DNA of 64,000 bases from Chloroflexota bacterium (GTDB lineage: Bacteria > Chloroflexota > Chloroflexia > QHBQ01). Of this stretch, positions 6,477-30,804 are shown piece by piece (within the stretch, counting starts at the first letter, position 1; each line of letters begins with the position of its first letter). The DNA lies in contig JAYUUN010000093.1 of the NCBI GenBank assembly GCA_043754535.1, forward strand, positions 19,590 to 83,589, read 5' to 3'. A program made the position numbers and the translations under genes. A model generated the notes under the pieces. That model ran no database searches and had not been told where the DNA came from. It saw only the letters and a program-made list of their open reading frames with translations.

Positions 6477-6550
6477 CACGCAGCACTCCTTTCGGGCAGG
6501 ATGCAACTATTATAACGGATCAGCCGCCAACAGGTTGCAGGTCAGCCGTT

Positions 6551-10226: not shown

Positions 10227-10255
10227 TTGACAGCTTTGATGGTTGAGGGTACACT
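10227..10255 (+). promoter_or_regulatory. sigma70-type promoter, TTGACA-17-TACACT
   Basis: It lies 36 nt upstream of the asnB ATG at 10291. Confidence 0.5.
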
Positions 10256-10290
10256 TTGGCAGGCTTTCTTTAGCTGAGAGGAGCAAGGCG

Positions 10291-12237
10291 ATGTGTGGCA
10301 TTGCGGGGGTCTACAACTTGGGCGGCGGGCAGGCGACAGCCGCGCAACTGGCAGCAATGAGCGGGGTGATCCGCCACCGGGGGCCGGACGACGAGGGCTT
10401 CTACCAGTCTGCTGAAGGGCGGCTAGGCTTTGCCTTTCGGCGGCTGGCGATCCTTGACCTTTCGCCCAGCGGCCACCAACCAATGGCCGCCGCAGGTGGT
10501 CGCTATCGGATCATCTTCAATGGAGAGTTTTACAACTACAAGGAGGTTGCCGCTGAACTTGCGCGCAAGGGCTATAGCTTCCGCTCCACTGGCGACACCG
10601 AGGTGCTGGTCAACGCCTATGCCGAGTGGGGGCCAGCCTGTCTCAGCCGCCTGAACGGGATGTTCGCGTTCGCCCTCTGGGACGAGCAGCGGCAGCATCT
10701 GCTGATCGCCCGTGACCGCATGGGCATCAAGCCACTCTACTACTGGTACGACGCGGCCAGCCAATCATTGGTCTTCGGCAGCGAGATCAAGGCGATCCTG
10801 CAAGATTGCCGCGTGCCACGCGAGCCTGACCCCGCCGCCATTGCCGAGTACGCCCGCTTCATGTATGTTACTAGCGACCGCACCTGGTTCGCGGGCATCC
10901 GCCAGTTGCCGCCCGGTTGCTACCTCGAACTGGGGCCGGAGACCGAGGGCTTGCAGGTGCGCCGCTGGTGGGACTTGCCGAGCGAGGAGGACGGGCAAAA
11001 TCTACGAAGCGAGGATGAGTACATCACCGACCTGCGCGCTCTCCTACGCGACGCGGTGAAGTTGCACCTGCGGAGTGACGTGCCAGTGGGCGCGCACCTC
11101 AGCGGCGGGCTGGACAGCAGCAGCATCGTCGCCCTGGTCAGCAACCAGTTGCAGGCAAGTGGGGCTGGGCCGCTCAAGACCTTCTCTGGTGCCTTCGCCG
11201 AGGGAGCAGCCTACGACGAGCGAGCTTACATCAACCTGGTTGCCAACCGTTACCAGACCGACCACCACGAGACCATCCCCAGCGCAGCCGACCTGCCCGC
11301 TGTGTTCGACAAGCTGATCTGGCACATGGACTACCCGACTGTCGGCCCAGGACTGCTGCCCCAATACTTCGTCTGCAAACTGACGGCGGAGAACGGGGTA
11401 ATCGTGGTCAACGGTGGGCAGGGCGGTGACGAGTTGTTCGCAGGCTACTTCCGCTACGTGCCACCCTACCTGCGCGGCAAGCTAGCAACCCTGCGCCAAC
11501 ATCCCGCTGCTGCCGCCGGCTTGCTAGCCGACGCGGGCCGCATCGCCAGCCGCGCAGCACTGCGCGACCTGGCCCTCAATCGCACTCGACGCAAGATAGT
11601 GAATGAGGGCAATATGGCCCTGCTGGTCGCCGAGGCCCAGGCAGCCTTGCCAGAGCGCGACCCTGGCAGCAACCCTGGCAGCAACCCGCTGCAACGCGCC
11701 CTTTATTGGGATATGCGTAACTACCTGCCCGCTCTCTTGCACGTAGAGGATCGCACCAGCATGAGTGTTTCGCTTGAGAGTCGGGTACCGCTGCTCGACT
11801 ACCGCATCGTAGAGTTGGCAGCACGCATCCCTGCTGCGCTCAAGCTCAAAGGTTTGGAGACGAAGCGGATCATGCGGCGAGCGGTCGCTCCCCTACTCCC
11901 CCCGCAGATCGTACAGCGGCGCGATAAGAAGGGCTTCCCCACCCCGATTGATCTTTGGTTCAGCGGCCCGCTCTACGAGTGGGTATGCGACCAGCTAACC
12001 GACCTCAGCCCCACCGCCGCCGCGTTGCTCGACCAGCAGCACTTGCGCCAACTCCTACGTGAGCAGCAGCAGCATGACCACAGCCGCGCCCTCTGGATGG
12101 CCCTCAGCATCAACGCCTGGTGCCGCCAGTTTATAGACGACTTTGTGCCATTCAGCCCCACTTTGCTCCCGACGAAGGGGGGGCAAGAAGAGAGCTACCC
12201 CTTTGAAGGAGAGGAGAGGATGACTGCTGCGCGATGA
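10291..12237 (+). CDS. asnB: asparagine synthetase B family (glutamine-hydrolysing) amidotransferase
   Basis: The protein must start MCGIAGV, because the class-II glutaminase needs an Ntn Cys2; GAGGAG lies 7 nt upstream. The synthetase domain has the SGGLDSS PP-loop. The track start at 10243 is an upstream extension. Its position next to glycosyltransferases suggests a glycan-amidation role. Confidence 0.9.
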   Translation: MCGIAGVYNLGGGQATAAQLAAMSGVIRHRGPDDEGFYQSAEGRLGFAFRRLAILDLSPSGHQPMAAAGGRYRIIFNGEFYNYKEVAAELARKGYSFRSTGDTEVLVNAYAEWGPACLSRLNGMFAFALWDEQRQHLLIARDRMGIKPLYYWYDAASQSLVFGSEIKAILQDCRVPREPDPAAIAEYARFMYVTSDRTWFAGIRQLPPGCYLELGPETEGLQVRRWWDLPSEEDGQNLRSEDEYITDLRALLRDAVKLHLRSDVPVGAHLSGGLDSSSIVALVSNQLQASGAGPLKTFSGAFAEGAAYDERAYINLVANRYQTDHHETIPSAADLPAVFDKLIWHMDYPTVGPGLLPQYFVCKLTAENGVIVVNGGQGGDELFAGYFRYVPPYLRGKLATLRQHPAAAAGLLADAGRIASRAALRDLALNRTRRKIVNEGNMALLVAEAQAALPERDPGSNPGSNPLQRALYWDMRNYLPALLHVEDRTSMSVSLESRVPLLDYRIVELAARIPAALKLKGLETKRIMRRAVAPLLPPQIVQRRDKKGFPTPIDLWFSGPLYEWVCDQLTDLSPTAAALLDQQHLRQLLREQQQHDHSRALWMALSINAWCRQFIDDFVPFSPTLLPTKGGQEESYPFEGEERMTAAR

Positions 12238-13466
12238 AAATCCTTTACCTCAGCCAGTACTTCCCGCCCGAAGTGGGGGCGACCCAAACCCGTGCCTACG
12301 AGATGGCTCGCTACCTGGCCGCACAGGGGCATCAGGTGACGATGCTCACCGAGGTGCCGAACCACCCCAGCGGCATCATCCCAGCAGAGTATCGGCGGAC
12401 GGTAGCCGACTTCAGCACGCTAGAAGGCATCCGCGTAGTGCGCCTCTGGGTGCTAGCCAGCCCCAAAAAGAGCTTCTTGCGCCGCATCAGCTTCTATCTC
12501 AGTTACACCGCCATGGCGACCTGGGCTAGCCTGTTCCTGCGCGGCAAGTACGACGTGATCGTGGCAACCTCACCGCCCCTGTTTGTCGGGCTGGCGGGGG
12601 TGCTGGTCAGCTACCTGAAGCGGACGAAGCTGGTTTTTGAGGTGCGCGACATCTGGCCGGAGTCGGCGGTGATCCTGGGGGAACTGAACAACCCACGAGC
12701 GATCAAGCTGTCCGAAGCTATCGAGCAATGGTGCTACCGCCGCGCCCGCCAGATCGTAGTCGTCACCGAGGGCATCCGCCAGCGTCTCATTGCACGTGGC
12801 CTGTCGGCAAAGAAGCTGCACCTGATCATGAATGGCGCAAACGTCAGCCAGTTCCAGCCGCAGCCAGAGCAAGCCGCCGTCCTACGCCACAAGTTGGGGC
12901 TGGAGGGTAAGTTCGTTGTCCTCTATGCGGGCATCCACGGCATTGCACAGGGCATGGAGACGCTAGTAGAGGTTGCACGGCTACTGCGCGATGAAAGCAG
13001 CATCCACTTTCTTTTTGTTGGTGAGGGGCCGAAGAAGGAGGAAACTACCGCCCTGGTACGCGCCCTGGCCCTACCCAATGTCACTCTGGTGGGCGAACGT
13101 CCGCGTGAGCAGATGGCAGCCTACCTTAGCCTGGCTGACAGCAGCCTGGTGCCGCTAAAGAAAGTAGCCTTGTTCGAGGGAGCCTTGCCGAGCAAGATGT
13201 TCGAGGCACTGGCCTGCTCCACCCCAGTCATCCTCAGCGTAGGTGGCGAGGCTACTCGCGTGCTGGGGGAGATGCAGGCGGGGATCGCAGTTGAGCCAGA
13301 GAGCGCAGCCCAGATCGTCGAGGCGATTCGCTGGCTGCAAGCCCACCCGAACGAGGCGCGCTTGATGGGCGCAAGGGGCCGCGCCGCAGTCACTGCCCAC
13401 TATTCGCGGCAGGCGCAGGCCGCCGAGTTGACCTCCCTGCTAGAACAGGTAGTGGCCGAACGGTAA
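12234..13466 (+). CDS. glycosyltransferase family 4 (WcaI/WbuB-like)
   Basis: The N-terminus MKILYLSQYFPPEVGATQTRAYEMARYLAAQGHQVTMLT and the C-terminal GT4 EX7E-type region (VPLKK...FEGALPSKMFEALACSTPVI) are both present. It overlaps asnB by 4 bp. Confidence 0.85.
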   Translation: MKILYLSQYFPPEVGATQTRAYEMARYLAAQGHQVTMLTEVPNHPSGIIPAEYRRTVADFSTLEGIRVVRLWVLASPKKSFLRRISFYLSYTAMATWASLFLRGKYDVIVATSPPLFVGLAGVLVSYLKRTKLVFEVRDIWPESAVILGELNNPRAIKLSEAIEQWCYRRARQIVVVTEGIRQRLIARGLSAKKLHLIMNGANVSQFQPQPEQAAVLRHKLGLEGKFVVLYAGIHGIAQGMETLVEVARLLRDESSIHFLFVGEGPKKEETTALVRALALPNVTLVGERPREQMAAYLSLADSSLVPLKKVALFEGALPSKMFEALACSTPVILSVGGEATRVLGEMQAGIAVEPESAAQIVEAIRWLQAHPNEARLMGARGRAAVTAHYSRQAQAAELTSLLEQVVAER

Positions 13467-13591: not shown

Positions 13592-16500
13592 ATGAGCCAA
13601 CGTGTCCGCGTCTCAGCGGTCAAACATTATGACCCCGCCAGCCCCGACCCAACAGATGAGGAGGAGCTAGCTGTCCTGCCAATAGAGGCTGGCCCACCCG
13701 TCAGCGAGCTAGAAGCTAGCAATGCGGCTAGCGAAGCTAATCAGCCCGCTGCGCACGCTGACCTGGATGCAACCACTGCCACAGTCGCCGAGCAGGTTGC
13801 CAGCCCCGAACTGGTTGAGGTCGAGACCACACCCACCAGCGAGTCGCTTGGGGCTGAGGTCACCGCCGAGCAAGTGCATCGCTCCTTGCTACCGGCTATC
13901 GTCATCCCCGCCCAATTCACCTGGCCGCTCTGGGTAGTGCGTCTGCTGCTGGTCGCGAGTGGGATTGGGCTTGGCATCTTCGGCCAGCTACGCTTGGAGC
14001 AGGCGCGGGCCGTCGCTTCGGTGCTGCCAGAGAACGCCTGGCTGCCCTTCATCGCTGGGGCGGTGCTGCTCGTCCTCGGTGCCTGGAACACGCCCACGCT
14101 GCTAACCGCAGTGCCAGCCCCCGCCCGCACCCTCTTTGGCGGCAATAGCCTCTGGTGGCTGGCGGGCGTGATGCTGGTCGCCGCGATTGCCTTCGTTGGC
14201 AACAGCCTGGTCTTCTTCAACAAGCTGAACACCATCACCGCCGACCCAGTGCAGACTCCAATCGACAGCGACCCTGGCACTCCCGCCTGGCTGTTCTTCC
14301 TGGCGGGTCTTGCCTGCTTTGGCCTGGCCCTGATCATCTGGGAGATCGGGGCGGGGCGGCGCGGTGGCGCACTCTCCGCCGACCCCGGCCCTGATCAGCT
14401 ACCGCGCTGGCTAGAAGGGTTGGTGCTGGCAGGCTTCTTCCTTGCTGCCCTCTTTGTGCGCTTCAACAACCTGGACAATGCCCCCCCTGGCCTCTGGTTT
14501 GACGAGGCGCAGAACGGCATCGTGGGCCAGCAGATCGTGGCTGGGGCCGCCGCGCCCCACCCGCTGTTCATCACCGGCTACACGCAGATGGGCGCGTTGT
14601 TCTTCTACCTGCAAGGGTTGCTGCTCAAGTTCTTTGGTGCGCAGATTTACCTGCTGCGGGTGTTGCCTGCCTTCGCTGGTGCAATCGCCGTGCCAATCAT
14701 CTACGTGCTGGCCTCGCGGCTCTACGGCTGGCGGACAGGCCTCGCTGCCGCCGCCTTCCTTTGCTTCAGCATCTGGAGCATCACCATGAGCCGCTTTGGG
14801 GTCGCCACCATCGTCACCACCACTCTCGACCTGGCGGTGATCACCTGCCTGGTGCTGGCCCTCCGCAGCGGGCGGCTGGGCTGGTATGGGCTGGCGGGGC
14901 TGCTGCTGGGCCTCAACCTGCATATGTACTATGGCGCACGGGTGCTGCCGCTGGTGATCGTCGCCGTCTTTGCCCACAAGCTAGTCAGCGAACGGTGGCG
15001 GTTCATCAAGGGCATCCGCTATGGGGTGCCGCTGTTCGTGATCGGCGCGCTGCTAGGCTTCGCCCCAATGGGCCTCTACGCCCTGCAACACCCTGGCGAG
15101 TTCTGGGGGCGCATCAACACCGTGGTCGCGGGGGGTGGTTCGGGAGCGGCAGGCATCTTCGCCAGCTTCCAGACTCCTGACGTGCAGATGAGCTTGCAGA
15201 AGCATCTGCTGATGTTCAACTGGGTCGGCGACGCGAACCCACGCCACAACTTCGCAGGGCTACCGATGCTGGACACAGTGGTGGCGGGCCTGTTCCTACT
15301 CGGCCTCGGCTACTGCGTCGCCCACTTCTGGCGGTGGCAGTACTTCTTCCCTGTCGTTTGGCTTGGCACTGAGATGCTGGGTGGTATCCTCTCGGTCTCC
15401 TTCGAGGCCCCGCAAGGCCACCGCACGATGGAGAATATGGTGACAACTGCGCTCCTGGCGGGCATTGCCGCTGGTGCCGCCCTCAATGCGCTGCGTAGCC
15501 CCTGGCTGGCCCGTCTTCGCACGCCACAACCAGCAGACCTCAGCCTCAAGCGGGTTGCCGCCGTTCCGCCAGTGGTGGTCGTTGACCAGCCACGCCGTCT
15601 GCGCCTGCGGATCGGGCAGGGGGTGGCAGCAGTGTTGGTGCTGGTGATGGCGGTGCAACTGGCGGGTACTGCCCTCGCCCGTTACGATCGCCAATCGCGC
15701 GCAACCCCTACCTGGCTTGAGATGTATGGCACCCAGTTGAGTGTCGCCCGCTTGCTGCTCAAGTACGACAAGGCTTATGAGTTCTACGTTTCGCCCCGCT
15801 ACATCGGCCTGCCACCGCAAGCCTTCCTTGCTCCAAATATCAACCCGCCGCGTACCTACGATGGTGCTTGGGCCTTGCCCTTCGATATCACAGGCCGCGA
15901 TGTAGGCATCATTGCCGACTTGGAAAGCTCGGCGGACATGGCCCGGATGTACAAACTCTACCCCAACGCCAGCTACACCGTCATCTACCCACCCAGCGAC
16001 CAGAACCCAGTGCAGTACGTGACCCTGCTCAAGGAGAGCGACCTGAACGCGATCAGGGGTGTTCATCTGCTTACCTACGCTGCCGACGCGGGCGCAGACC
16101 CTAAACCTACTAGCGACAAGTACGAGCCGAGCCTGAAGCACCAGTGGCTAGCGGCAGACGGTAAGTTCCCCCTGCGCGCGCGCTTTGAGGCCACTATGCG
16201 CCTGGCGAACAGCAGCACCGCCAGCTTCTATCTGGAAGGTGCGCCGGTCAGCGCGACAGTGACGGTGGATGGCTTCCCTGGGGGGACTGCTCGCTACGTC
16301 GCGGCTGGCTTGCACACTGTTGTGGTCGAGCAGACGGTAGCGGCGGCGGGTGGTCAGACGCACTTGCTGATGGATGCGAACGGCAGCGTTGGCCTGGAGA
16401 TAGCCCCGGAAAGCCTGTTCAAGCCGTCGGTGGAAGTTCGTGGCCTGACCGGCAACTACTACGCTGGCGGCAACGTGGCTGGCCCGCCGACGCTAGCGCG

Positions 16501-17824
16501 GATTGACCCGTTTATCTCCTTCTACTATCACCTGACCCCGATGGGCCGACCCTACGCCATCCAGTGGACGGGTAAGCTGTACATCCCAACCGACGGCAGC
16601 TACAACATCGCCACTGAGCAGATCAGCCGCTCGACCCTCGAAGTGGATGGACAACTGGGTATCACCAACAACGCCTTCAACAGCCTGGCCGAACAGTCCT
16701 TTACTCTCAAGCGCGGCTTCCACGACATTCGCCTAACCTTCTACGACACAGATGGTGGTTCGCATATGTTCCTCTACTGGACACCGCCCAGCGGCGAACG
16801 GACGATCATCCCTTCGGCCTTCCTCTGGCCGGTGCAAGGCAGCTACCCTGCGCTGGATGCACCAGGGTTGCCGACGCTGGCCGAGGCTACTGGCCGCCTG
16901 CCCCAGGACAAGCTGGCGAAGGATATGCCGCCCGCACCTACCCCTGTGCCGCAGCCAGCCCAACAGCCCCAGCAGCCCAGCGGACAGCCAACCCAGCCGC
17001 CAGCGGGCGAGAAGCTCGATCTACCCGCCGCCACTGTCCTTACTGCGCGGGCCACGATCAATCTTGAGGGAGAAGCTCCCGTGCGTGGGGTGGCGGCTGA
17101 CACGAAGGGTAACATCTATGTGCTAGCTGGTGGCGAGAGCAAGATACACAAGTACGACGCTGGTGGCAAGGAGCTAACCTCCTGGACGGTGGAGAAAGGA
17201 GGGCAGGTGGCTAAAGACCCCACAGCTATCTCCATTGCTGGCGAGCGCGTGGTGGTGCTGGACGCAGCGACCGCCAACCTCCTCAGCTACGACCTGAACG
17301 GCAAGCCGCTTTCGGTGGTGCAAGCCTGCGCCTGCTTCAACCCGCGCGACATGATCGCCCTGGTGGACGGTAGCTACTGGCTGGCGGACACCGGCCTCAA
17401 CCGCCTGATCCACGTGGACAACCAGGGCAAGGAGCTTGGCGTTGTCGGCCAACAGGGGAGTGAGGGCGGCCAGTTGCTCGAACCAGCCGCCGTCTGGCAA
17501 GACAGGGAGGGCAACCTCTACAGCTACGACAGTGGCAACAAGCGGCTGCAACGCTTCGACCGTAGCGGTCACTTCCTAGCCCAGTGGCCCTTCTACCCCA
17601 GCCCACCGCTAAACGGGACGCGCATCAGCGGCAACGACAAGTACATCTTTGTTACCGCCCCAGGCCAGAGCATGATCGTCGGCTATGACCACGAAGGCAA
17701 GGGGCCAGTGACCTGGCAGCCGAGCGGCAAGAGCGCACAACCGAGCGCGATCACCGCCACTGGCAGCGGCTTTGCCGTCGCTTACCCGAAGGAGCAGCGG
17801 GTTTTGCTATTCGACTTGCCCTGA
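13592..17824 (+). CDS. giant membrane glycosyltransferase: PMT/ArnT-like GT-C multi-TM domain + PA14 domain + NHL-repeat beta-propeller
   Basis: 1410 aa. The acidic N-terminus is followed by about 12 TM helices, with the GT-C 'DE' motif in the first external loop (GLWFDEAQNG). A PA14-like segment follows (GLTGNYYAGGNVAGPPTLARIDPFISFYYHL...IQWTGKLYIPTDGSYNIA...LYWTPPSG). Then comes a Pro/Gln linker and C-terminal NHL repeats (GNIYVLAGGESKIHKYD; GNLYSYDSGNKRLQRFD). Confidence 0.8.
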   Translation: MSQRVRVSAVKHYDPASPDPTDEEELAVLPIEAGPPVSELEASNAASEANQPAAHADLDATTATVAEQVASPELVEVETTPTSESLGAEVTAEQVHRSLLPAIVIPAQFTWPLWVVRLLLVASGIGLGIFGQLRLEQARAVASVLPENAWLPFIAGAVLLVLGAWNTPTLLTAVPAPARTLFGGNSLWWLAGVMLVAAIAFVGNSLVFFNKLNTITADPVQTPIDSDPGTPAWLFFLAGLACFGLALIIWEIGAGRRGGALSADPGPDQLPRWLEGLVLAGFFLAALFVRFNNLDNAPPGLWFDEAQNGIVGQQIVAGAAAPHPLFITGYTQMGALFFYLQGLLLKFFGAQIYLLRVLPAFAGAIAVPIIYVLASRLYGWRTGLAAAAFLCFSIWSITMSRFGVATIVTTTLDLAVITCLVLALRSGRLGWYGLAGLLLGLNLHMYYGARVLPLVIVAVFAHKLVSERWRFIKGIRYGVPLFVIGALLGFAPMGLYALQHPGEFWGRINTVVAGGGSGAAGIFASFQTPDVQMSLQKHLLMFNWVGDANPRHNFAGLPMLDTVVAGLFLLGLGYCVAHFWRWQYFFPVVWLGTEMLGGILSVSFEAPQGHRTMENMVTTALLAGIAAGAALNALRSPWLARLRTPQPADLSLKRVAAVPPVVVVDQPRRLRLRIGQGVAAVLVLVMAVQLAGTALARYDRQSRATPTWLEMYGTQLSVARLLLKYDKAYEFYVSPRYIGLPPQAFLAPNINPPRTYDGAWALPFDITGRDVGIIADLESSADMARMYKLYPNASYTVIYPPSDQNPVQYVTLLKESDLNAIRGVHLLTYAADAGADPKPTSDKYEPSLKHQWLAADGKFPLRARFEATMRLANSSTASFYLEGAPVSATVTVDGFPGGTARYVAAGLHTVVVEQTVAAAGGQTHLLMDANGSVGLEIAPESLFKPSVEVRGLTGNYYAGGNVAGPPTLARIDPFISFYYHLTPMGRPYAIQWTGKLYIPTDGSYNIATEQISRSTLEVDGQLGITNNAFNSLAEQSFTLKRGFHDIRLTFYDTDGGSHMFLYWTPPSGERTIIPSAFLWPVQGSYPALDAPGLPTLAEATGRLPQDKLAKDMPPAPTPVPQPAQQPQQPSGQPTQPPAGEKLDLPAATVLTARATINLEGEAPVRGVAADTKGNIYVLAGGESKIHKYDAGGKELTSWTVEKGGQVAKDPTAISIAGERVVVLDAATANLLSYDLNGKPLSVVQACACFNPRDMIALVDGSYWLADTGLNRLIHVDNQGKELGVVGQQGSEGGQLLEPAAVWQDREGNLYSYDSGNKRLQRFDRSGHFLAQWPFYPSPPLNGTRISGNDKYIFVTAPGQSMIVGYDHEGKGPVTWQPSGKSAQPSAITATGSGFAVAYPKEQRVLLFDLP

Positions 17825-17843: not shown

Positions 17844-17883
17844 AAAAAGAAACCCCGTCCCTCAACCAGGGAACGGGGTTTCG
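17844..17883. terminator. bidirectional intrinsic terminator between convergent genes
   Basis: aaaaaga-aaccccgtccc-tcaacc-agggaacggggtt. The T-tract is on the minus strand. Confidence 0.55.
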
Positions 17884-17893: not shown

Positions 17894-18961
17894 CTAAGCC
17901 TCACGCTCCGTCTGCTTCTCCGCGTAGATGGTGAGCGTCGCACCCTGGCGCAGGGCAGCGGCCAGTAGGGTTGCTGGTATGCTGACCACGCCTAGCAGGC
18001 CACCGAGCAGGATGGTAGCGGCCACCTGGGGCGCAAGGTTGCCAGCCCCCTCGTCGGCCCCGATCACCTTTGCGGTACGCCCACGCAGGAGATTGTAGAG
18101 CAGATTAGGGCGTAGGCCGAGGCGGTTGAGGGTCGATTGCACAAAGCTGAAGCTATCAAACTCCGGGGCGAAGAACTGCATCCTTCGTACCCGCAGGCCC
18201 GTGCGCTTGAGGGCGCGTCGCAGCGAGTGGGGGGTGAAGTGGTTGAGGTGGCGCGGCACATCCAGGTGGAACCACTTGTCGCCGCTGACCCGCGCTTCGA
18301 GGCTGGCGAAGTTCGGCACACCGATCAGGAAGATACCGCCAGGGCGCAGCAGTCGGTTGACCTCGCGCATGGTGGCGGCGGGGTCGATCACGTGTTCCAG
18401 CACGTGCCACATTACTACCGCGTCAAAGTGGCCGCTAGGGAAGTGCTGATCGGCAAGGTCGCCAACCTGCACTGGCAGGCCCAGCACCTCGCGGGGGTAG
18501 CTAGCTGATCCCTCGCTCAACTCCGTTCCCACAACATCCCAGCCCAGCTTCTGCAATTGGGCGAGCAAGAGACCACGCCCGCAGCCGACATCTAGCACCC
18601 GCCCTGGCTGGCCGCCGTTCATCAGCGTCAACTGGCGCGCGCGGTAGCGATAGAGGGCATCTTGCAGCCGCTCGATCACGCTGGGGAAGCGTTTGTCGCG
18701 GTGGGTGCCGTAGTAGCCAGCCGGGTAGTAGGCGGCCAGTTCTTTCGGCGCAGGGGTGGGCTGAGTCTGCGCCCAGCCATGCTCCGCATTGACCACGATC
18801 TCGAACTGCTCGTGAGTGATGTAGTCGGTGGCAGCGAACAGCCGCCGCGGGCTGGGGGTCTGCGGCTGGCTGGCCTCTTGCCTGGCACCGCTGCTCTCTG
18901 GGCTAGCCGCATCCGCTTCACTTAGGTTCATCGTTGCTTCCTCTGGTATGCTACTGATCAT
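17894..18961 (-). CDS. class I SAM-dependent methyltransferase (Methyltransf_11/23-like)
   Basis: Motif I is VLDVGCGRGLL and the acidic loop is DAVVMWHVLEHV. Its start codon shares one nucleotide with the stop of the upstream GT2 gene (TAATG). It is a paralog of the methyltransferase at 39740..40525. Confidence 0.8.
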   Translation of the reverse strand: MISSIPEEATMNLSEADAASPESSGARQEASQPQTPSPRRLFAATDYITHEQFEIVVNAEHGWAQTQPTPAPKELAAYYPAGYYGTHRDKRFPSVIERLQDALYRYRARQLTLMNGGQPGRVLDVGCGRGLLLAQLQKLGWDVVGTELSEGSASYPREVLGLPVQVGDLADQHFPSGHFDAVVMWHVLEHVIDPAATMREVNRLLRPGGIFLIGVPNFASLEARVSGDKWFHLDVPRHLNHFTPHSLRRALKRTGLRVRRMQFFAPEFDSFSFVQSTLNRLGLRPNLLYNLLRGRTAKVIGADEGAGNLAPQVAATILLGGLLGVVSIPATLLAAALRQGATLTIYAEKQTEREA

Positions 18962-19839
18962 TATTGGCTGATGGCGGCGGTATCGCGCCCCTCCACCTTG
19001 TTCAAGTCATCACCAGGGGGGGTGGCGGTGCCACCGGGGGTAAAGAGGCCCACACTATGATAGCGACTGACGATCTGTGAGAGCTTCTTGCTGAAGATCG
19101 GGTAGCGCATCAGGTGCAGCCGCTTGTGCAGCAGAAACTTACGCATCACGTCCAGGGTTGCCAGACCGTAAACTACGCTGCGGCGGAAGTTGACCGAGGA
19201 GGCTTCCTTGAAGTAGCGGGTCGGCACTGCGATTTCGGCGATACGGAAGTCGAAGGCGCGGGCCTGGGCGATCACCTCACTATCAAACACAAAGTCGTCG
19301 GAGTTGAGCAGGAAGGGGATCGTCTGCAACATCTGGCGAGTGTAGGCGCGGAAGCCGGTGTGCGCCTCGGAGAGACTAGTACCCATCACCAGGTTCTCGG
19401 TAGTGGTTAGGAAGCGATTGGAGATGTACTTCCAAATTGGCATTCCCCCGGCCAGAGCCTCGCCACTGAGCAGGCGCGAACCCAGCACCATGTCGGCGCG
19501 CCCCTCCAGCAGCGGCTGGATCATCTGCGGCACCAGGTCGGCGGCGTACTGGTTGTCAGGATGCAGCATCACTATGATGTCTGCCCCATCACGCAGAGCC
19601 TCGAAGTAGCAGGTCTTCTGGTTGCCGCCGTAGCCCCGATTCTGGATGTGGGTGATCACCTTGAGGCTGAGGCGGCGGGCGATTTCTACCGTCTCGTCGC
19701 TACTTACATCGTCCACCAGGATGATCTCGTCCACCACATCGGGGGGGATGTCGGCGACAGTGCGCTCCAACGTCTTCTCTGCGTTGTAAGCGGGCATCAC
19801 GACGACGACTTTGAGCTTGTTGCTGTTCATGGGCTGCAA
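18961..19839 (-). CDS. glycosyltransferase family 2, Dpm1/GtrB-like polyprenyl-phosphate sugar synthase candidate
   Basis: VVVVMPAYNAEKTLERTV...IILVDDVSSDET (DxD context) ...RGYGGNQKTCYFEA. Confidence 0.85.
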   Translation of the reverse strand: MQPMNSNKLKVVVVMPAYNAEKTLERTVADIPPDVVDEIILVDDVSSDETVEIARRLSLKVITHIQNRGYGGNQKTCYFEALRDGADIIVMLHPDNQYAADLVPQMIQPLLEGRADMVLGSRLLSGEALAGGMPIWKYISNRFLTTTENLVMGTSLSEAHTGFRAYTRQMLQTIPFLLNSDDFVFDSEVIAQARAFDFRIAEIAVPTRYFKEASSVNFRRSVVYGLATLDVMRKFLLHKRLHLMRYPIFSKKLSQIVSRYHSVGLFTPGGTATPPGDDLNKVEGRDTAAISQ

Positions 19840-19868: not shown

Positions 19869-22679
19869 CTATTGTGGAGGGAAGACCTGGACGCGGCGGC
19901 TGTCCGACTCCAGGGTATAAACCTTGCCGCCTGGATCGGTAGCCACGTCGACCAGGCCCTGGAACTGCCCGGCCCCGCCACCAGGCAGGCCGAGGATGCG
20001 GGCGTTACCATTGTCGGTATTGATCGCTATCAGTCTGTTGCGCTCTGAACTGGTGACGTAGAGGATGTTGCCGTGGGCGGCTAGGTGTAGGCTGGTCTCC
20101 TGCTCGAAGCCGAGCAGGGGCCACTCGCGCTGAAAATTGCCCGCCCTGTCGAACTGAGCGATCCGCCGCTTGAGGTCGCTGACGTAGATTTGGCCGTTGC
20201 TACCAACCGCGCAATCTATCGGCTGGTAGAGTTGCTTTGGCACCGTGCGTTCCAGGTTATCGTTGCCGAACTGAGCGATCAACTTGCCAGTGTTGTCCAA
20301 CTTGATCACCCGATTGCCGCCGGTGTCGGCCAGGTAGATGTTACCTGTTGGGTCAGCGCAGAGGCCACGTGAGCCGTAACTCTGGGCGGCGTTGTTGAGG
20401 TTGAGGTTGCCCAGCAGCTTGCCGTCTGGGTCGTAGACAGCCATGCCACCGTTGGTGTTGAGGGCGATCAGGTGGCCCTGGGTAAAGAGCAGCGACACCA
20501 GCCGTCCGCGCTCGCTCTCACTCAACTCGGCGAACAGCCGCCAGTGGGCTGCTGGCTTGCCGTCAACGTTGATGCGCGTCACAGTGAAGTTCTCGCGGTC
20601 AGCAGTGTAGGCGTTACCCTGATCGTCGGCGGCAATCGCCAGCGGGATCGGGATCGCGTAGTCACCTTGAGGGACGGTGGTGGTCAGCGGCACAAACTGC
20701 GCGGGCGGCACCTCGCTGATCTGGGCGTAGGCATCCTTCAGGCCGAAGGTGTAGCTGTAGAACAGGTAGCTGCCGATCAGCAGCCCTAGCCCAGCCAGCA
20801 GGCTGATCAGCGAGTGGCGCAGCCCCCAGCGTGGTGGGATTGGGATGGTCGCAGGCAGCACGTAGGTCGCTGGTTCAGCCTCCACCACCGCTGCCCCCGC
20901 TGCCCCTGCTGTTTCGCCCAGGCTGGCTGCTACCCCCGGCTGAACCATCGGCACTAGCTGGGTGGCGGCTGGCACATCAGGCAGGCTCCCAGCACTAGCC
21001 ACCCTACTGGAAGCGAGTTGCGGACGGTAGCTGCGTTGCGCCCACCAGTAGAGTAGCAACCCCAGTAGCAGCACCGCCGCAATCGAGGTGAGGGCAGGAA
21101 CGCTCTCCTGCACGGCATTGCGGGCCGAGTAACCCTGACTGAGGAAACCCGCCTTGCTGCGGGCGAACACAAAATCGGGCAGCAGGCCGTTGCTGGGGAT
21201 CGTCTCGATCCACTGCTGTAGCCCTGGGTTGGGGATGCGCAGCAGTAGGCTCTTAAACAGGTCGAAGCCGTTGAGGGCGAAGCTAAACGAATCCTGGGGG
21301 TTGAAAATGAAGGCGGCGGTTTGTACCAGGCTGACTGCCAGCAAGCCAGCATAGGTCAGCTTGTAGATCAGCGAGGGGAGTAGAGTGCTAATGCGGGCGA
21401 AGCCGAGGGCGAAGGGTAGGGCGAACAGCGGCAGGATAGCAATGAAATAGCGGGCTGGTGGAGCCCAGATGCCCCACCAGTACTTGAAATTGGCGAGCAG
21501 GCCGAGGTAGGGAATGGCTACCGCCAGGATCACGATCAGGTCTAGCCGCCACCGCTTCTCCAGGCCCATGATGATTAGCCCTACCCCAGCAAGCAGGAAG
21601 ACCGGGGCGGTGGTGAGGAAGCCGAAACGCTGGTCGATGAACAGGCCGAGGCCAGAGAGGATGGTATCGGTCGCATCATTGCGTTCTAGATAGCCCGCCT
21701 TGATCGTGAACTCGTGAAAGAGAGTGTAGCTCCAACCGAAGATGCCCAGGGCAGAGACGAGCAGCACCAGCGGCAGGGTAGCATAGTGGCGCAACCAGGT
21801 AGCTAGCTTTGGCTTGCCACGCACGCTCATGTAGAAGTAGAATAGGGTGAGGATGCCAGCAAGCGGAATGTAGCGATAGTGTAGCCAGGGCAGTGAAGCA
21901 ATGCTGAGGGCGACCAGTGCAGTCTGCACCCCGGTGTTTTGCCAGAGGCGGATGCGACGAAAGGCGTAGATCACCAGCAGGGCGGCGGGCAGTTCGGTGA
22001 AGATCAGGTAGATGAAGGGGAAGATGGGCAGGGTAAGCATGAAGGTAGCAACAGTGAGGATAGCGATCCATCGCTTGTTGACCGTTTCGCGCACCAGCAG
22101 GTAGATGTTGGCGGCCAGCAGTGCGCCGAGCAGGTTGAGGAAGAAGACTACCGCCAGCCGCCCACCCAGGGCATAGGCAGGGGCGATCAGGATGCTAAGG
22201 CCAAGGCCATGCCAGGTGTAAGCCTCGTTCTGGCTACCATCGGCAGGCAGCGGCGTGGCAGGGTCGGTGCTGATGCAACGGCGACTGAGCGGCTCAATCT
22301 GCTCCCATTGCACTGGCAGTGGGTAGGTCATGTTCGGCCAGCCCTGGTAGCCCTGCGGACGGGCCACACCTTGCTGCCAGTAGGAGGGAGGATAGAAGCC
22401 TTGCTCGTCGCGCTGGCGGAAGTTATTGCACTCGTTGAAATCACCATCCTTGAGCAGGCTGATCGTAGTCATCAGGTAGGTTGGCTCGTCGCCAGAAACC
22501 GGGTCGAGGATGGTAGTGAGGCGGGGGGTGAGAGCGGCAAAGAGGGCAAGGGCGATTAGAAAGACGATAGCCATCTCCACGAAGCTGGGGCTGGCACTCG
22601 TCGCGGTGGGGTGGGAGCGCGCAGCAGGTGGGCTGGGAGCGGCCATGATGGTTATGCTGCTCTCTTGCGAAACACTCAT
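19869..22679 (-). CDS. GT-C (PMT/ArnT-like) membrane glycosyltransferase with a C-terminal NHL-repeat beta-propeller
   Basis: 936 aa. The 'DE' motif follows TM1 (DPVSGDEPTY). There are about 12 TM helices, and the C-terminal NHL repeats include GNIYLADTGGNRVIKLD, GQIYVSDLKRRIAQFD and GKVYTLESDSRRVQVF. Confidence 0.8.
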   Translation of the reverse strand: MSVSQESSITIMAAPSPPAARSHPTATSASPSFVEMAIVFLIALALFAALTPRLTTILDPVSGDEPTYLMTTISLLKDGDFNECNNFRQRDEQGFYPPSYWQQGVARPQGYQGWPNMTYPLPVQWEQIEPLSRRCISTDPATPLPADGSQNEAYTWHGLGLSILIAPAYALGGRLAVVFFLNLLGALLAANIYLLVRETVNKRWIAILTVATFMLTLPIFPFIYLIFTELPAALLVIYAFRRIRLWQNTGVQTALVALSIASLPWLHYRYIPLAGILTLFYFYMSVRGKPKLATWLRHYATLPLVLLVSALGIFGWSYTLFHEFTIKAGYLERNDATDTILSGLGLFIDQRFGFLTTAPVFLLAGVGLIIMGLEKRWRLDLIVILAVAIPYLGLLANFKYWWGIWAPPARYFIAILPLFALPFALGFARISTLLPSLIYKLTYAGLLAVSLVQTAAFIFNPQDSFSFALNGFDLFKSLLLRIPNPGLQQWIETIPSNGLLPDFVFARSKAGFLSQGYSARNAVQESVPALTSIAAVLLLGLLLYWWAQRSYRPQLASSRVASAGSLPDVPAATQLVPMVQPGVAASLGETAGAAGAAVVEAEPATYVLPATIPIPPRWGLRHSLISLLAGLGLLIGSYLFYSYTFGLKDAYAQISEVPPAQFVPLTTTVPQGDYAIPIPLAIAADDQGNAYTADRENFTVTRINVDGKPAAHWRLFAELSESERGRLVSLLFTQGHLIALNTNGGMAVYDPDGKLLGNLNLNNAAQSYGSRGLCADPTGNIYLADTGGNRVIKLDNTGKLIAQFGNDNLERTVPKQLYQPIDCAVGSNGQIYVSDLKRRIAQFDRAGNFQREWPLLGFEQETSLHLAAHGNILYVTSSERNRLIAINTDNGNARILGLPGGGAGQFQGLVDVATDPGGKVYTLESDSRRVQVFPPQ

Positions 22680-22966: not shown

Positions 22967-24463
22967 CTAGCGACCTACCTTGTTGGGGCCGAGGCTGACG
23001 CGCTGGGCGCGGCTACCGTCGTGCGAGAGTAGTATGCGCTCGTCGCCAACCACAGTCTCTAGATGCACAGGCCGCCCCCACAGTTGGTGGATGTACTGCA
23101 AGACCTTCTCCGCATAGCTCGCATCCAATTCCTGGCCCTCGTAGTGGTGGCGCAGGTAGAGTTCGTGGTTGCGGTTGTAGTCGCCATCGTCAACGGTGAT
23201 GTAGGGCTGGCCGAAGTTGGTCATGCTAGCAACGATGCCATCGCGCACCTTCTCCCAGTTCTTCTCGACGATCACCCACTCGTTGCCCTGCTTGGCGTAG
23301 AGGTAGAGGTCTAGCTCGGCGATCAGTTCTTTGGTCAGGTAGTTGCGGAGGAAGGATACATCATTGTCCATCTCGCGCACCTCGAATATCTTGGCCCGAC
23401 CCTGGCCGGGAACGCGCTTGAGGCGGTCACGCTCCTCCTCGGTCGGTGCGTCCCAGCGGCGTTCGATGGACTCGTAGAGTTTGAGGCCCAGGTAGTAGGG
23501 GTTGAGTTGGAAGCGCGAGTGATGCATCACGCCCGCATTAACTTTGGCGTACTCAGTGTAGTCGTCGCTACTCATCTCAAACTCGCGCATGATGCTCTGG
23601 TGGTGGTAAGCGGCCCAGCCCTCGTTCATAATCTTGGTCTGCATCTGCGGCACAAAGTAGAGCATCTCCTGATGCACGATGCCGATCACGTCACGCTGCC
23701 AATCCTCAAGGTGGCGGGCGTGCTGCTGGAGAAAGAGGAGCAAGTCCTTCTCTGGCTGGGCCGGGAAGCGGCGACGCTCGCTCTCCTTCTTCTCCTTCTC
23801 TTTCTCCTTCTCACTCTTGAGCGGCAAAGCGGCTTGCTGGGCCGCCTCTGCCTCAGTCGGCAGCCCTGGTAGCGACCAGAGGTCGTCGTAAGCAGACTCA
23901 GCCACGTGCGGCTTCACCTGCTCGCGGCGGTTGCCCTCGCTCTCCTCACCCGCTGTGGCGAAGCTCTGGTGCGGATCGATGTGTTCGGAGATCGAGAGTA
24001 CCGCGTCCAGGAACTCCTCCACCTTCTTGCTGCCATGCTGGTACTCATATTGGCGGATACGCTCGGCATTGAGGCTGGCGGTCTCGATCATGTGGCGGTT
24101 GGTGCGCTGGAAGTAGATGTTGTTCTTAAAGAAGTCCACATGGCCGAGGACATGGGCGGCAACCAGTCGGTTGGCGGTCAGGCTGTTGTTCTCCAAGAGG
24201 AAGGCGTAGGCAGGGTTAGTGTTGATCACCATCTCGTAGATGATGCTCAGACCAAAGTCGTACTGCATCTTCATCTTGTTGTACGCCTTGCCATGCGTCC
24301 AGTGGCTGAAGCGACCGGGAATGCCATATGCACCGAACTCGTACATGATGCTGGCAGGCACCACCTCGAAGTGGACGGGGTAGAAGTCCAGCCCGTTGGC
24401 TTTCGCCATCTCGACGATCACCTCAATATCTTTGGTTAGCTGCTCGTAGTCTTGTTCGTTCAA
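22967..24463 (-). CDS. spoVR: SpoVR-family protein
   Basis: It aligns residue for residue with the B. subtilis SpoVR N-terminus (GLDFYP...FGAYGIPGRFSHWTHGKAY). It has a TTG start with AGAGGGT 6 nt upstream. Confidence 0.9.
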   Translation of the reverse strand: MNEQDYEQLTKDIEVIVEMAKANGLDFYPVHFEVVPASIMYEFGAYGIPGRFSHWTHGKAYNKMKMQYDFGLSIIYEMVINTNPAYAFLLENNSLTANRLVAAHVLGHVDFFKNNIYFQRTNRHMIETASLNAERIRQYEYQHGSKKVEEFLDAVLSISEHIDPHQSFATAGEESEGNRREQVKPHVAESAYDDLWSLPGLPTEAEAAQQAALPLKSEKEKEKEKKESERRRFPAQPEKDLLLFLQQHARHLEDWQRDVIGIVHQEMLYFVPQMQTKIMNEGWAAYHHQSIMREFEMSSDDYTEYAKVNAGVMHHSRFQLNPYYLGLKLYESIERRWDAPTEEERDRLKRVPGQGRAKIFEVREMDNDVSFLRNYLTKELIAELDLYLYAKQGNEWVIVEKNWEKVRDGIVASMTNFGQPYITVDDGDYNRNHELYLRHHYEGQELDASYAEKVLQYIHQLWGRPVHLETVVGDERILLSHDGSRAQRVSLGPNKVGR

Positions 24464-24467
24464 TGGT

Positions 24468-25080
24468 TTACCCTCTGGTTAGCCTCTGGTAGGCGGCACG
24501 AACTGCTACTTCTAGTTCGCTAGCTTGAACTTCGTAGCGAGCAAAGTTTTGTATGTTGTCTGGCTTCATGTGAATCTGGCCTTCGCCTACGTTACCTCGG
24601 TGCTGACCTTTTGAGTAGCCTCTAATCTGGGTTAGCTCATCTGCCTTGATCACCCAGAACCGGGCAACATCAAGCCAGACAGCTATAAAGACAAAAACTG
24701 AAGCCTGTGCAACCTTCAATTGCTGAAAGTTCATGTCGAAGTAATAGCCAGAAGTTGACAGGAGTGGAACACTCGCACCTTTATCCCCTTGCGGGGCTTG
24801 CCCCATGCTCTACTGGTTTTGACTTCTACTTTAATATTATCTAGAGTAGTATCGTAGCTGTTGCCCAAAGGTGGTGTCATGCCAGGAACGTTGCTCATTA
24901 CTTGCATAACCCCCACTTGCCAGTGTCGGTTGGAGCGGAGAACGCAAAAACGTGAGCGTAGGTCTGACTTTGATCAGCCATGTACTCCTGCTTCAGCCGC
25001 TCATACGCCGCTATGACCGCTGGATCAGCCAGTTGCTCAAACAGCGCATCCAGCCTTTGCCACAGTTCGTCAATCGTCAA
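24468..25080 (-). other. low-GC (~48%) 613-bp segment with three overlapping small ORFs in three different frames (60, 61 and 112 aa)
   Basis: Windows of ~60 nt here have 42-53% GC, against ~62% in the flanks. The three ORFs overlap by 19 bp and 76 bp. The first has a TTG start 9 nt after the methyltransferase stop and no Shine-Dalgarno sequence. The third ends 5 nt before spoVR, inside the spoVR Shine-Dalgarno sequence. The middle frame carries a D-x9-EVK pattern (SYDTTLDNIKVEVK). Confidence 0.3.
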
Positions 25081-25089
25081 GTGCTTGCC

Positions 25090-26064
25090 TCAATCGAACA
25101 ATGATAGCTGCCCACTATCATCCACAATGCTGTCAATGGTGCCGTCAAGTTCAGCCGCAAACGGATTACTGTTCTGCCAGCCGCGCTTGCCGCTAGCTCG
25201 CCAGCGTTCCAACCTGCGGATCGTGATCTCGCAGAAGACCGCATCGTTGTCCATCGTGAAGCAGCGGCGGCCCGATAGTTCAGCTTGCAGCAGGGTCGTG
25301 CCAGAGTGAGCGAAGAAGTCCAGCACGGTGTCGCCTGGCTGCGAACTGGCGTTGATGATCCGCTCGATAGCCTTGAGCGGCTTCTGTGCGTAGCAACCGT
25401 TGACGTTTTCTTCCAGCCGGTAGAAGACCTGCTGGACATCGAACCAGACGTTGCCTGCCCGGATGTAAGGCGACTTGCCACGCTCGGTGTTCTCGGTCAG
25501 TTCGCCTTCAACTTCCTTGTAGTAACCCTTGACTGCCTTCGGTATCTCGGTGTACTGCGGCGTGAAGAAGGGCTTGCCCAGCGTGTAGTAAAGCAACTCC
25601 TGCCGAACAGCCATCCAGTTGTGTTGCGTGCCGTAGCCACGCTGGTTACGCATGGTGATGAAGCTGCGTGAAGAAAACGGCGTGTTGCTCATCATCAGCA
25701 TAAACTGCGGCAACGGCTGATAGTGGTTGTCCTGATCCGCCCCCAGCCAAACATAGAGGCTGCTAGTAGGCAGCAGCACAGCAGCGGTGTTGTCCACCCA
25801 CTGCCGACACCATGCAGCGTACTCGTCGGCTGAACGGCTGGCGAAGGCAACGAGGTTGTAGGGTAGGTCCTGCACCGCCAGAGCCGCTTTGTCGTTGCCG
25901 CACAGCTTACTAACATCAGCGGCGGATGCGGCATCCAGGCAGCCAACGCGGTGGCCGCCAACGGCATCCACCCACACCTCGCCCGGACGCAGACGGCAGA
26001 AGTCGAGCAAGCGGATGCGTAGCTCCTGCTCCTTGTCCAAGCGTGGTAGTGGATTAGCGATCAT
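25090..26064 (-). CDS. beta-class N6-adenine/N4-cytosine DNA methyltransferase (motif IV before motif I)
   Basis: Motif IV is DLPYNL, a variant of DPPY. Motif I is QPGDTVLDFFAHSGTT, followed by ...AQKPLKAIERII.... The start overlaps the yeaH stop (ATGA at 26061..26064). No intact restriction enzyme gene lies adjacent. Confidence 0.8.
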   Translation of the reverse strand: MIANPLPRLDKEQELRIRLLDFCRLRPGEVWVDAVGGHRVGCLDAASAADVSKLCGNDKAALAVQDLPYNLVAFASRSADEYAAWCRQWVDNTAAVLLPTSSLYVWLGADQDNHYQPLPQFMLMMSNTPFSSRSFITMRNQRGYGTQHNWMAVRQELLYYTLGKPFFTPQYTEIPKAVKGYYKEVEGELTENTERGKSPYIRAGNVWFDVQQVFYRLEENVNGCYAQKPLKAIERIINASSQPGDTVLDFFAHSGTTLLQAELSGRRCFTMDNDAVFCEITIRRLERWRASGKRGWQNSNPFAAELDGTIDSIVDDSGQLSLFD

Positions 26065-27254: not shown

Positions 27255-27348
27255 AACATACCTGCCTTGCAAAGGGGCGAGTAGCCACCCACCCCACGTA
27301 GAAGTTGCGTTTGACAGAGGGTACTGCCAAGCTCTGGTGGCTGCCCAG

Positions 27349-29244: not shown

Positions 29245-29786
29245 TGCTCTGTCTCCTTCGCAAGCGGGACGGTTGCCCAAAACCGCCGCGCTCACCTGCC
29301 TTGACTGTTGGGGACGGCCCCGCTGAACGGTATAATAATTATACGCCAGCTTGCCGACCGGGGTTGCACAACACTGCCTACCAACAATGCCACGAAGTTA
29401 AAGATCAGGTTAGAATTGCCTTGACCAGGTACAGAAAGAGGACACTGCCGCGCCACTGAGCGGCTCTTGCGAACCGTCGGTTGGCGACACTGCCCTCCTT
29501 ACCAAACTACTATACAGCGATCTTGCGGGCGCATACGCTTTGCCCTTCTAGCTGCCACTGCTGTGTTTCAAGGTTAAGATCATCTGGCTCTTTTACCCAT
29601 TCTTTGGCAAGGGGGCAGCTTAGGGACTGCCTACGTTACTCTTATCTTACCATACGCTGCAAATCTTGACAATAGCGCATTGGTACCGCCAGCTAGCAGC
29701 CAACTGATGACAATATGCAGGGAACGTGCCAGACGCAAAAGCCGCCCCGATGTTGCAGGGCGGCTGCGATGGGCCAAAAGCCGCAC

Positions 29787-30727: not shown

Positions 30728-30804
30728 TGGTAGCGCATAGGGGATTCGAACCCCTGGTCTCATCCTTGAGAGGGATGTGTCCTAGGCCGCTAGACGAATG
30801 CGCC
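30728..30804 (-). tRNA. tRNA-Glu (anticodon CUC)
   Basis: I folded the 77-nt cloverleaf by hand. The acceptor is GGCGCAT/ATGCGCT, then A, then CCA. The D-arm is GTCTAGCGGCCTAGGAC. The anticodon stem is CATCC/GGATG with loop CTCTCAA (anticodon CTC). The T-arm is AGGGG-TTCGAAT-CCCCT. Confidence 0.75.

Follow-up and report, generated by a model that had tools for sequence, protein, structure and literature searches.

Paired Dpm1-like glycosyltransferases and SAM methyltransferases beside GT-C-type genes of a Chloroflexota bacterium: a possible methyl-editing step for lipid-linked sugar donors

The two gene pairs and their neighbours

The window analysed here is a stretch of 64,000 nucleotides (nt) from the contig JAYUUN010000093.1 of a Chloroflexota bacterium. 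Its minus strand contains two pairs of genes, each made of a Dpm1-like family 2 glycosyltransferase (GT2) and a class-I S-adenosylmethionine (SAM) methyltransferase (MT), and each located beside large polytopic genes of the GT-C glycosyltransferase type. Pairings of the same kind recur in many bacterial phyla, and this recurrence points to a route, not yet described, by which methylated sugars would reach the cell surface. In the first pair, GT2_1 (18961-19839, 292 amino acids, aa) matches PF00535 with 88.5 bits and MT1 (17894-18961, 355 aa) matches Methyltransf_23 of Pfam with 112 bits; in the second, the corresponding values are 124.8 bits for GT2_2 (40564-41277, 237 aa) and 67 bits for MT2 (39740-40525, 261 aa). 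The first-pass annotation had put both pairs on the minus strand with one and the same gene order and beside GT-C-type genes, and the Pfam and NCBIfam matches, together with the counts of transmembrane (TM) segments, bear this out.

That annotation also described a single base shared by the GT2_1 stop and the MT1 start. The sequence TAATG does provide it if the longest open reading frame (ORF) of MT1 is taken, but not if MT1 starts at its second ATG. The overlap depends on the start call, because in a near-identical assembly MT1 is called from that second ATG (345 aa, start 18931), with GT2_1 at 289 aa. The second ATG is preceded by a GAGGAAG Shine-Dalgarno sequence, and MT1 is probably the 345-aa protein starting at 18931. 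For MT2, the GTG at 40531 (263 aa) is a more likely start than that of the 261-aa form; it has AGAGGAG 9 nt upstream, and P0121 likewise has 263 aa.

The first pair is the end of a co-directional run, GTC_B > GT2_1 > MT1, in which GTC_B is the first gene and is separated from GT2_1 by 29 nt. The run converges on GTC_A, and the convergent gap contains, on the minus strand and 12 nt past the MT1 stop, a strong hairpin resembling an intrinsic terminator (17849-17882; 13 pairs, 8 of them GC, followed by a T-run). Upstream of GT2_2, at 48 nt, a minus-strand sequence (41325-41354, TTGACA-18-TATCAT) agrees with the sigma-70 promoter consensus at 11 of 12 positions, and is given as a consensus match only. 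The 3' end of MT2 overlaps by 4 nt that of GTC_E, the final gene of the run GTC_C > GTC_D > GTC_E.

The five large neighbours are all polytopic, with 9-18 TM-like segments. GTC_A (13592-17824, plus strand, 1410 aa), convergent with MT1, combines PMT_2 (36.5 bits), PA14 (32 bits) and NHL domains, while GTC_B (19869-22679, minus strand, 936 aa) has about 10 TM-like segments, a GDE motif after TM1 and a C-terminal NHL propeller (57.8 bits). GTC_C (31096-34233) and GTC_D (34347-37472), both on the plus strand, match TIGR03663, the Agl23 family, with 169.6 and 265.5 bits (cut-off 126 bits); the former has about 18 TM-like segments, and the latter adds a PMT_2 match (44 bits) and a C-terminal NHL propeller (120 bits). 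GTC_E (37503-39743, plus strand, 746 aa) contains nine TM-like segments and gives a PMT_2 score of 17 bits, below the cut-off. Hence three of the five neighbours (GTC_A, GTC_C and GTC_D) exceed the cut-off of PMT_2, TIGR03663 or both, whereas GTC_B and GTC_E have no significant GT-C family match in Pfam or NCBIfam and no sequence match in the PDB. A small flippase of the GtrA or ArnE/F type was not found among the scanned ORFs of the window, which do include the two Agl23-family proteins.

The glycosyltransferases

Both GT2s lie above the PF00535 cut-off of 23.3 bits. For GT2_1 the NCBIfam models AglJ, PpgS and Dol-P-hexose transferase match best, although none reaches its cut-off; AglJ is the top model for both proteins, with ArnC also among the top matches. 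Equivalog-level identity with AglJ, ArnC or PpgS is not reached, the AglJ model giving 148.7 bits for GT2_2 and 83.6 bits for GT2_1 where 325 bits are required. Judged by sequence, GT2_1 and GT2_2 are new subfamilies and not orthologs of the named enzymes. In the PDB the top match of both is the Pyrococcus dolichol-phosphate mannose synthase (DPMS, 5mlz), followed by ArnC and GtrB (for GT2_2, E 4.5e-23 with 5mlz and 1e-18 with ArnC, GtrB being matched as well). PgaC and similar processive models score lower in NCBIfam and cover the N-terminal third only. A processive synthase identity is ruled out by this order of NCBIfam and PDB matches, and the grouping with Dpm1 and GtrB made in the first-pass annotation stands: the type that best matches the two proteins would be that of the polyprenyl-phosphate glycosyltransferases (Dpm1, GtrB, ArnC, AglJ, PpgS).

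Neither GT2 has a TM helix or any hydrophobic segment, the maximum Kyte-Doolittle hydropathy over 19 residues being 0.8-1.0. They differ in their metal motifs. GT2_2 and 64 orthologs keep the canonical QDADLEY, whereas GT2_1 and all 19 of its orthologs examined carry HPDxQY (residues 91-97, window 19549-19569) at the position of the DxD motif (DADLxY). HPDxQY may be a His-containing metal site that defines a very large GT2 subfamily. The GT2_1 family is Chloroflexi-centred and has at least 8000 homologs, the top 120 of which are 65-77% identical to it.

The methyltransferases

Both methyltransferases belong to class I, with five or more Pfam methyltransferase models above cut-off. Their SAM-binding residues are invariant in the family alignments (D124, G126, G128, G130 and E147 for MT1; E65, G67, G69, G71 and D87 for MT2), and a conserved D/H pair is invariant across both families. 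The AlphaFold2 (AF2) models, with predicted local-distance difference test scores of 87 for MT1 and 89 for MT2, contain a seven-strand sheet and have in common an unusual layout, in which a helical insertion separates the last two strands. The insertion of MT2 (residues 208-246) is amphipathic and consists of two helices rich in Trp and Arg, and that of MT1 (residues 266-336) includes a 31-residue hydrophobic helix of mean hydropathy 1.57. A true transmembrane anchor at the C-terminus of MT1 is ruled out, as the model puts the hydrophobic stretch between β6 and β7. Helices so placed could not span the bilayer and return, and they would therefore fit a monotopic, membrane-facing lid; predicted to lie beside the active site, the insertion is compatible with docking of the enzyme on the membrane.

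In the MT1 family the N-terminus forms a CxH...CxxC zinc ribbon, whose ligands C31, H33, C58 and C61 are nearly invariant in 26 relatives. The MT1 of the window lacks all four of them (QTPSP... and NAEHG; residues 1-65, window 18770-18961). AF2 nonetheless predicts a three-strand ribbon at that end, a degenerate zinc-ribbon fold, and the MT2 model has no ribbon. Fold searches with both models retrieved generic small-molecule methyltransferases only, with TM-scores of about 0.5-0.6. The structures of lowest root-mean-square deviation (rmsd) from MT1 were TcaB9, KijD1 and MtmC (3.5-3.9 Å over 221-250 columns). MT1 is nevertheless not of the TcaB9 type: it has no Methyltransf_13 or Methyltransf_14 match in Pfam, its zinc ligands are lost and it contains a helical insertion instead. 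No curated NCBIfam family naming either methyltransferase was found. In the source annotations both families are labelled ubiquinone-type methylases, by automatic COG labels. Models of methyl-mannose or methyl-glucose polysaccharide methyltransferases were absent among the NCBIfam matches, a direct orthology search with reference sequences not having been made.

Relationship between the pairs

The first-pass annotation had taken the two pairs as copies of a duplicated module. The proteins are homologous, with 30% identity between GT2_1 and GT2_2 (E 9e-28) and 25% over 149 columns between MT1 and MT2 (E 1e-9). At the DNA level, blastn between the pairs yielded chance matches of 14-23 nt only, none with E below 0.03. 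The GC content at third codon positions (0.75-0.81 in both pairs) equals that of the housekeeping genes, a native codon usage. A recent tandem or segmental duplication is ruled out by the absence of DNA similarity, the 25-30% protein identity and the native codon usage, and the idea of copies has to be given up: to judge from the sequences, the pairs are ancient, separate cognate families, homologous and separately co-evolving. The paralogy proposed for the methyltransferases, including their C-terminal halves, is retained as an ancient divergence, because profile-profile comparison of the families gives 99% probability (E 1.6e-18, 190 columns) and reaches the C-terminal region, and because the AF2 models have the insertion layout in common; over the core, any two Methyltransf_23 enzymes would give about the same profile-profile score. 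In the alignment, WFHLDVPRHLNHF indeed falls opposite LDYYLDHYRRYKY, the two motifs having been cited for this paralogy.

Recurrence of the pairs in other genomes

Pairing was counted from tblastn coordinates with strand-anchored picking of ORFs. When metagenomes were scanned with the family alignment of MT2, 80 loci were obtained; 68 of them have a same-strand gene of the GT2_2 type (44-60% identity) no more than 300 nt away, the methyltransferase preceding in 42 and the GT2 in 26, and five of the 12 loci lacking such a neighbour lie at contig ends. The MT1 alignment, run against species-representative genomes, also gave 80 loci, 39 of them with a match that covers the C-terminal insertion. 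An adjacent GT2_1-type gene (46-62% identity) was found in 12-13 of these 39 full-length loci, and within about 2 kb in several more. The paired MT1-type loci belong to at least eight lineages (Dormibacteraeota, Opitutales, Gammaproteobacteria, Zixibacteria, Omnitrophica, Acidimicrobiia, Acidobacteria, Planctomycetes and Halieaceae), and their genes are arranged in tandem in both orders, some with 4-nt overlaps, or convergently. Cross-pairing, of MT1-type with GT2_2-type genes or the reverse, was not found in any locus of the two scans.

The two activities also occur in single chains. The 455-aa protein P0205 joins GT2_2-like and MT2-like domains, and its gene adjoins that of a Wzx-type flippase. 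A more distant, third lineage is represented by a 432-aa fusion of a Dpm1-like GT2 and a methyltransferase (L170, 104-1402), with a DADLSH motif, encoded between two PMT_2 genes; the same cluster contains four polytopic genes of about 545 aa along with radical-SAM enzymes, an epimerase and additional GT2s.

Polytopic genes accompany the pairs outside the window too. GT2_1 and MT1 pairs of other phyla are adjoined by PMT_2 proteins in four loci (L017, L020, L032, L038) and by polytopic proteins with C-terminal TPR in three (L031, L047, L051), and a Wzy_C+TPR protein is located near the pair of L024. No GT2 adjoins the three MT1 relatives nearest in sequence (62-64% identity); these are directly followed by GTC_A orthologs (47-51% identity), which are PMT_2+PA14+NHL proteins where full-length (L172, 1780-7346; L173, 2651-5355; the contig of P0007). 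The methyltransferase is thus linked to GT-C genes in its own right, and in near relatives it is the GT-C, not the GT2, that is conserved beside MT1. Sampled members of the GT2_1 family adjoin PMT_2 genes, one GTC_A-like PMT_2+PA14+NHL gene and LPG_synthase_TM genes. In Chloroflexi, GT2_1 orthologs are followed by LPG_synthase_TM, which resembles the flippase domain of MprF (L169, 8001-11518; L171, 4244-10892), and in L171 by the undecaprenyl-diphosphatase BacA as well. LPG_synthase_TM is a candidate flippase of the lipid-linked sugar in those loci; the window has none.

Downstream of MT2 > GT2_2 pairs a co-directional polytopic protein is usual, either a GTC_E homolog or a protein of about 500 aa. 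GTC_E homologs follow the pairs in six loci (L105, L108, L122, L126, L138, L157). The proteins of about 500 aa contain 7-9 TM-like segments and a conserved (F/Y)DD shortly after the first (L097, L102, L109, L131, L136, L146-L151, L160-L164). Most of the conserved cassettes consist of a GT2, a methyltransferase and one polytopic protein only. In soil metagenomes a gene for an NtrC-type, sigma-54-dependent response regulator lies directly upstream of many of the MT2 > GT2_2 > polytopic operons (L097, 382-1758; L160, 8574-9974; about 20 similar loci), and many GT2 > MT pairs have, in convergent orientation, a gene for a Cache-domain sensor.

A proposed fourth, donor-editing component

The observed gene content, family assignments, cognate pairing, fusions, linkage to GT-C genes and architecture of the models underlie the mechanism proposed here, to which we give about even chances: a three-component extracytoplasmic glycosylation system that would have the methyltransferase as fourth, donor-editing component. 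What we infer is which lipid, which sugar and which methyl acceptor take part, and how the steps follow one another. The soluble, Dpm1-like GT2 would charge polyprenyl phosphate with a sugar drawn from a nucleotide sugar, on the membrane's cytoplasmic side. The cognate methyltransferase, docked by its hydrophobic insertion, would methylate the lipid-linked sugar before flipping; a lipid-linked acceptor is suggested because the insertion occupies the usual position of the substrate lid in class-I enzymes. Because SAM is found in the cytoplasm and GT-C enzymes work on the outside, a methyltransferase belonging to a GT2/GT-C pathway would have to act before flipping. Of the two options offered by the first-pass annotation, methylation of the sugar after its transfer outside the cell is therefore topologically implausible for a SAM enzyme, and methylation of the lipid-linked donor is the one we infer. 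ArnD and NaxD are precedents for the editing of a lipid-linked monosaccharide donor. Likewise, the ORF13 epimerase and DprE1/E2 edit a lipid-linked monosaccharide ahead of the GT-C step (PMC11127046). The methyl-sugar-phosphopolyprenol would then cross the membrane, for which the two Agl23-family proteins are the candidates in the window, because Agl23 is a putative hexose-P-dolichol flippase (PMC11182771). Finally, the adjoining GT-C enzymes would take it as donor, and the glycan or protein that serves as acceptor would be bound by their extracytoplasmic PA14 and NHL domains, in the manner of the carbohydrate-binding module at the C-terminus of the Citrobacter GT-C (PMC11127046).

A bolder version is conceivable, although we hold it tentatively and would not favour it. 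Methylated polyprenyl-phosphate monosaccharides would be an unrecognised class of donors, made by obligate GT2/MT complexes, some of them fused, in at least three independent lineages and at least ten phyla, and the methyltransferase would also tether the TM-less synthase and hand its product to the cognate GT-C.

Several observations weigh against donor editing. No characterised homolog of either methyltransferase was found by sequence or fold searches, every NCBIfam match of the two GT2s is far below the equivalog cut-off, and the canonical DxD is absent from GT2_1. The polytopic neighbours of about 500 aa have no useful Pfam or NCBIfam match, and a relationship with GTC_E was rejected for them (hhalign, 1% probability). 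The closest relatives of MT1 and MT2 (50-64% identity) often have no adjacent GT2, and many GT2_1 orthologs of Chloroflexi (about 70% identity) have GT-C neighbours and no MT1-type methyltransferase. Because of these two last points, the methyltransferase would be accessory, or able to work with an unlinked GT2. What had been described as a conserved module beside GT-C genes thus holds in so far as the pairing extends over many lineages, with some fusions; the methyltransferase is not an obligate partner of GT2_1.

Alternative explanations

The methyltransferase might act earlier, on a soluble nucleotide sugar (by O-, N- or C-methylation), and the GT2 would load an already methylated sugar. 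The zinc ribbon joined to a class-I fold in the MT1 family favours this, since TcaB9, KijD1 and MtmC have the same layout and appear among the sequence matches as well. However, MT1 has a hydrophobic helical insertion where those enzymes carry the C-terminal domain that binds the nucleoside diphosphate (NDP)-sugar, the zinc ligands are lost in the window, MT2 has no ribbon at all, and a soluble substrate needs no membrane-facing helices; we regard this explanation as improbable. A similarly low probability is assigned to a pathway in which the GT2, as AglJ, starts or extends a lipid-linked oligosaccharide, the methyltransferase modifies or caps the glycan on the cytoplasmic side, as AglP or WbdD, and the neighbours are of the oligosaccharyl-transferase, ligase or polymerase type instead of GT-Cs for monosaccharides. 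AglJ being the top NCBIfam match of both GT2s speaks for it, and so do the methylation by AglP of a sugar in a dolichol-phosphate-linked glycan (PMC3871713), the Wzx/MOP flippase genes flanking both the L106 pair and the fusion P0205, the Wzy_C+TPR protein of L024 and, in the window, the GT4 and AsnB-like genes upstream of GTC_A. Most of the conserved cassettes lack further cytoplasmic glycosyltransferases, though, and the AglJ scores are less than half of the equivalog cut-off.

It is also unlikely, to about the same degree, that the methyltransferase spares the sugar, methylating another membrane lipid (a quinone, a phospholipid or the polyprenol) or mainly tethering the TM-less GT2, as DPM3 does for DPM1 and Rv3632 for PpgS. 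Such a role would agree with the ubiquinone-type labels and with UbiG and phospholipid N-methyltransferases among the sequence and structure matches; moreover, the hydrophobic segment that the GT2s lack is present in the methyltransferases, and the fusions put this membrane element C-terminal to the GT2. Nevertheless, the ubiquinone names are automatic COG labels, catalysis is under selection, as the SAM-binding residues and the D/H pair are invariant, and the linkage of the closest MT1 relatives to GT-C genes with no GT2 adjacent argues against a pure GT2 anchor. Lastly, GT2 and class-I methyltransferase families are very abundant, and the pairs could be thought to be chance neighbours or a recent local duplication. 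The probability of this is close to negligible: the recurrence of cognate pairs in dozens of unrelated genomes, with the fusions, rules out chance adjacency, and the low protein identity, the lack of DNA similarity and the native codon usage described above stand against duplication.

Other genes in the window

The remaining window is ordinary chromosome, including PBP1, two aminoacyl-tRNA synthetases, RelA/SpoT and the PrkA–DUF444–SpoVR set. The latter lies between the GT-C groups, at 22967-29295 (PrkA 27349-29295, DUF444 26061-27272, SpoVR 22967-24463), with an N6/N4 DNA methylase gene (25090-26064) inserted between DUF444 and SpoVR; the order is kept in the near-identical contig L167. A tRNA-Glu gene (anticodon CTC; 30728-30804, minus strand), the sole Rfam match in the window, is located just upstream of the GTC_C–GTC_D–GTC_E run. 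Directly upstream of GTC_A (10243-13466, plus strand) a gene resembling that of glutamine-dependent asparagine synthase overlaps by 4 nt with one for a GT4 glycosyltransferase; AsnB-like genes are also found near MT1+GT2_1 pairs in L024 and L031.

Three SLH repeats and a weak match to a propeller-like domain (PQQ_2) mark the 808-aa product of the minus strand at 49971-52397, a predicted cell-wall-anchored surface protein that could be an acceptor of glycosylation. A stand-alone gene similar to Cas4/PD-(D/E)XK nucleases lies at 42664-43224 (minus strand), with no other CRISPR-associated genes among the scanned ORFs. In the 733-aa ORF at 52584-54785 (minus strand) the LysR helix-turn-helix and substrate-binding domains make up the first 310 residues or so; the remaining residues, about 420, match no family, and the ORF may be a fusion or over-extended. 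Two minus-strand ORFs beside an ABC/FtsX transporter pair (3577-5283, 568 aa; 5514-6506, 330 aa) have no Pfam match.

Comparison with known systems

Bacteria and archaea commonly carry methylated sugars on their surfaces, and the known routes of methylation act, to our knowledge, on nucleotide sugars or cytoplasmic polymers. A system composed of GT2, methyltransferase and GT-C was not found described in the literature searched. If the proposal is true, methylation would be a new editing step in the GtrB/ArnC/Dpm1 paradigm, beside deformylation, deacetylation and epimerisation. Thousands of genes that at present go under the names ubiquinone methylase or generic GT2 in Chloroflexi, Acidobacteria, Dormibacteraeota, Planctomycetes and others would gain a role, and cassettes of two or three genes would become available for glycoengineering. 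The cassette is small and widespread, and owing to the fusions and the strictly cognate pairing two recombinant proteins would be enough to test the idea directly.

WbdD of E. coli O8/O9a is a kinase/methyltransferase with an amphipathic C-terminal membrane element, and methylates a polyprenol-linked glycan at the cytoplasmic face. It differs in domain layout, in capping a long undecaprenyl-diphosphate-linked polymer exported by an ABC transporter and in having no Dpm1-like GT2 or GT-C partner. The NDP-sugar C-3 methyltransferases TcaB9, KijD1 and MtmC combine, like the MT1 family, a zinc ribbon with a class-I fold and are the lowest-rmsd matches of MT1; their C-terminal sugar-nucleotide-binding domain is absent from MT1, which has the hydrophobic insertion and, in the window, has lost the zinc ligands.

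With DPMS, Dpm1 and the mycobacterial Ppm1 the two GT2s have in common the GT-A domain, DPMS being the top PDB match of both; as TM-less catalytic subunits they would need a partner for work at the membrane, as human DPM1 with DPM3 or Ppm1 with Ppm2. In GT2_1, however, an invariant HPD takes the place of DxD, and the proposed partner here is a methyltransferase. The Arn pathway (ArnC, ArnD, ArnE/F, ArnT) follows a similar course, from the GT2-made undecaprenyl-phosphate sugar through membrane-associated cytoplasmic editing to GT-C transfer, although its editing is a deformylation and not the methylation proposed here; lipid A is not expected as acceptor in the present case, and the GT-Cs of the window are far larger, with propeller domains.

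The actinomycete methyl-mannose pathways, named in the first-pass annotation as the precedent, are more distant than ArnD, DprE1/E2, the ORF13 epimerase (PMC11127046), AglP (PMC3871713) or WbdD. AglP belongs to the archaeal Agl pathway (AglJ/AglD, AglP, AglS, Agl22/Agl23), in which it is a SAM methyltransferase within a dolichol-phosphate-linked route (PMC3871713). To this pathway the locus is related by AglJ as best curated model and by two neighbours above the Agl23 cut-off. Nevertheless, the target of AglP is the hexuronic acid of a tetrasaccharide and not a monosaccharide donor, the host here, judging by its Chloroflexi-like relatives, is a bacterium, and the AglJ scores are well below cut-off.

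The three-component systems (GtrA/GtrB/Gtr; Citrobacter ORF15/14/12 with ORF13; PMC11127046) show the same charging of polyprenyl phosphate in the cytoplasm, a GT-C acting outside and, in some, an extra editing enzyme. The C-terminal glycan-binding domain of the Citrobacter GT-C is comparable to the PA14 and NHL domains described here (PMC11127046). A SAM methyltransferase has not been reported in three-component systems in the literature searched. The system of the window differs from them in that it has no GtrA-type flippase gene, its GT2s have no TM helices at the C-terminus such as those of GtrB, and its extra enzyme is a SAM methyltransferase.

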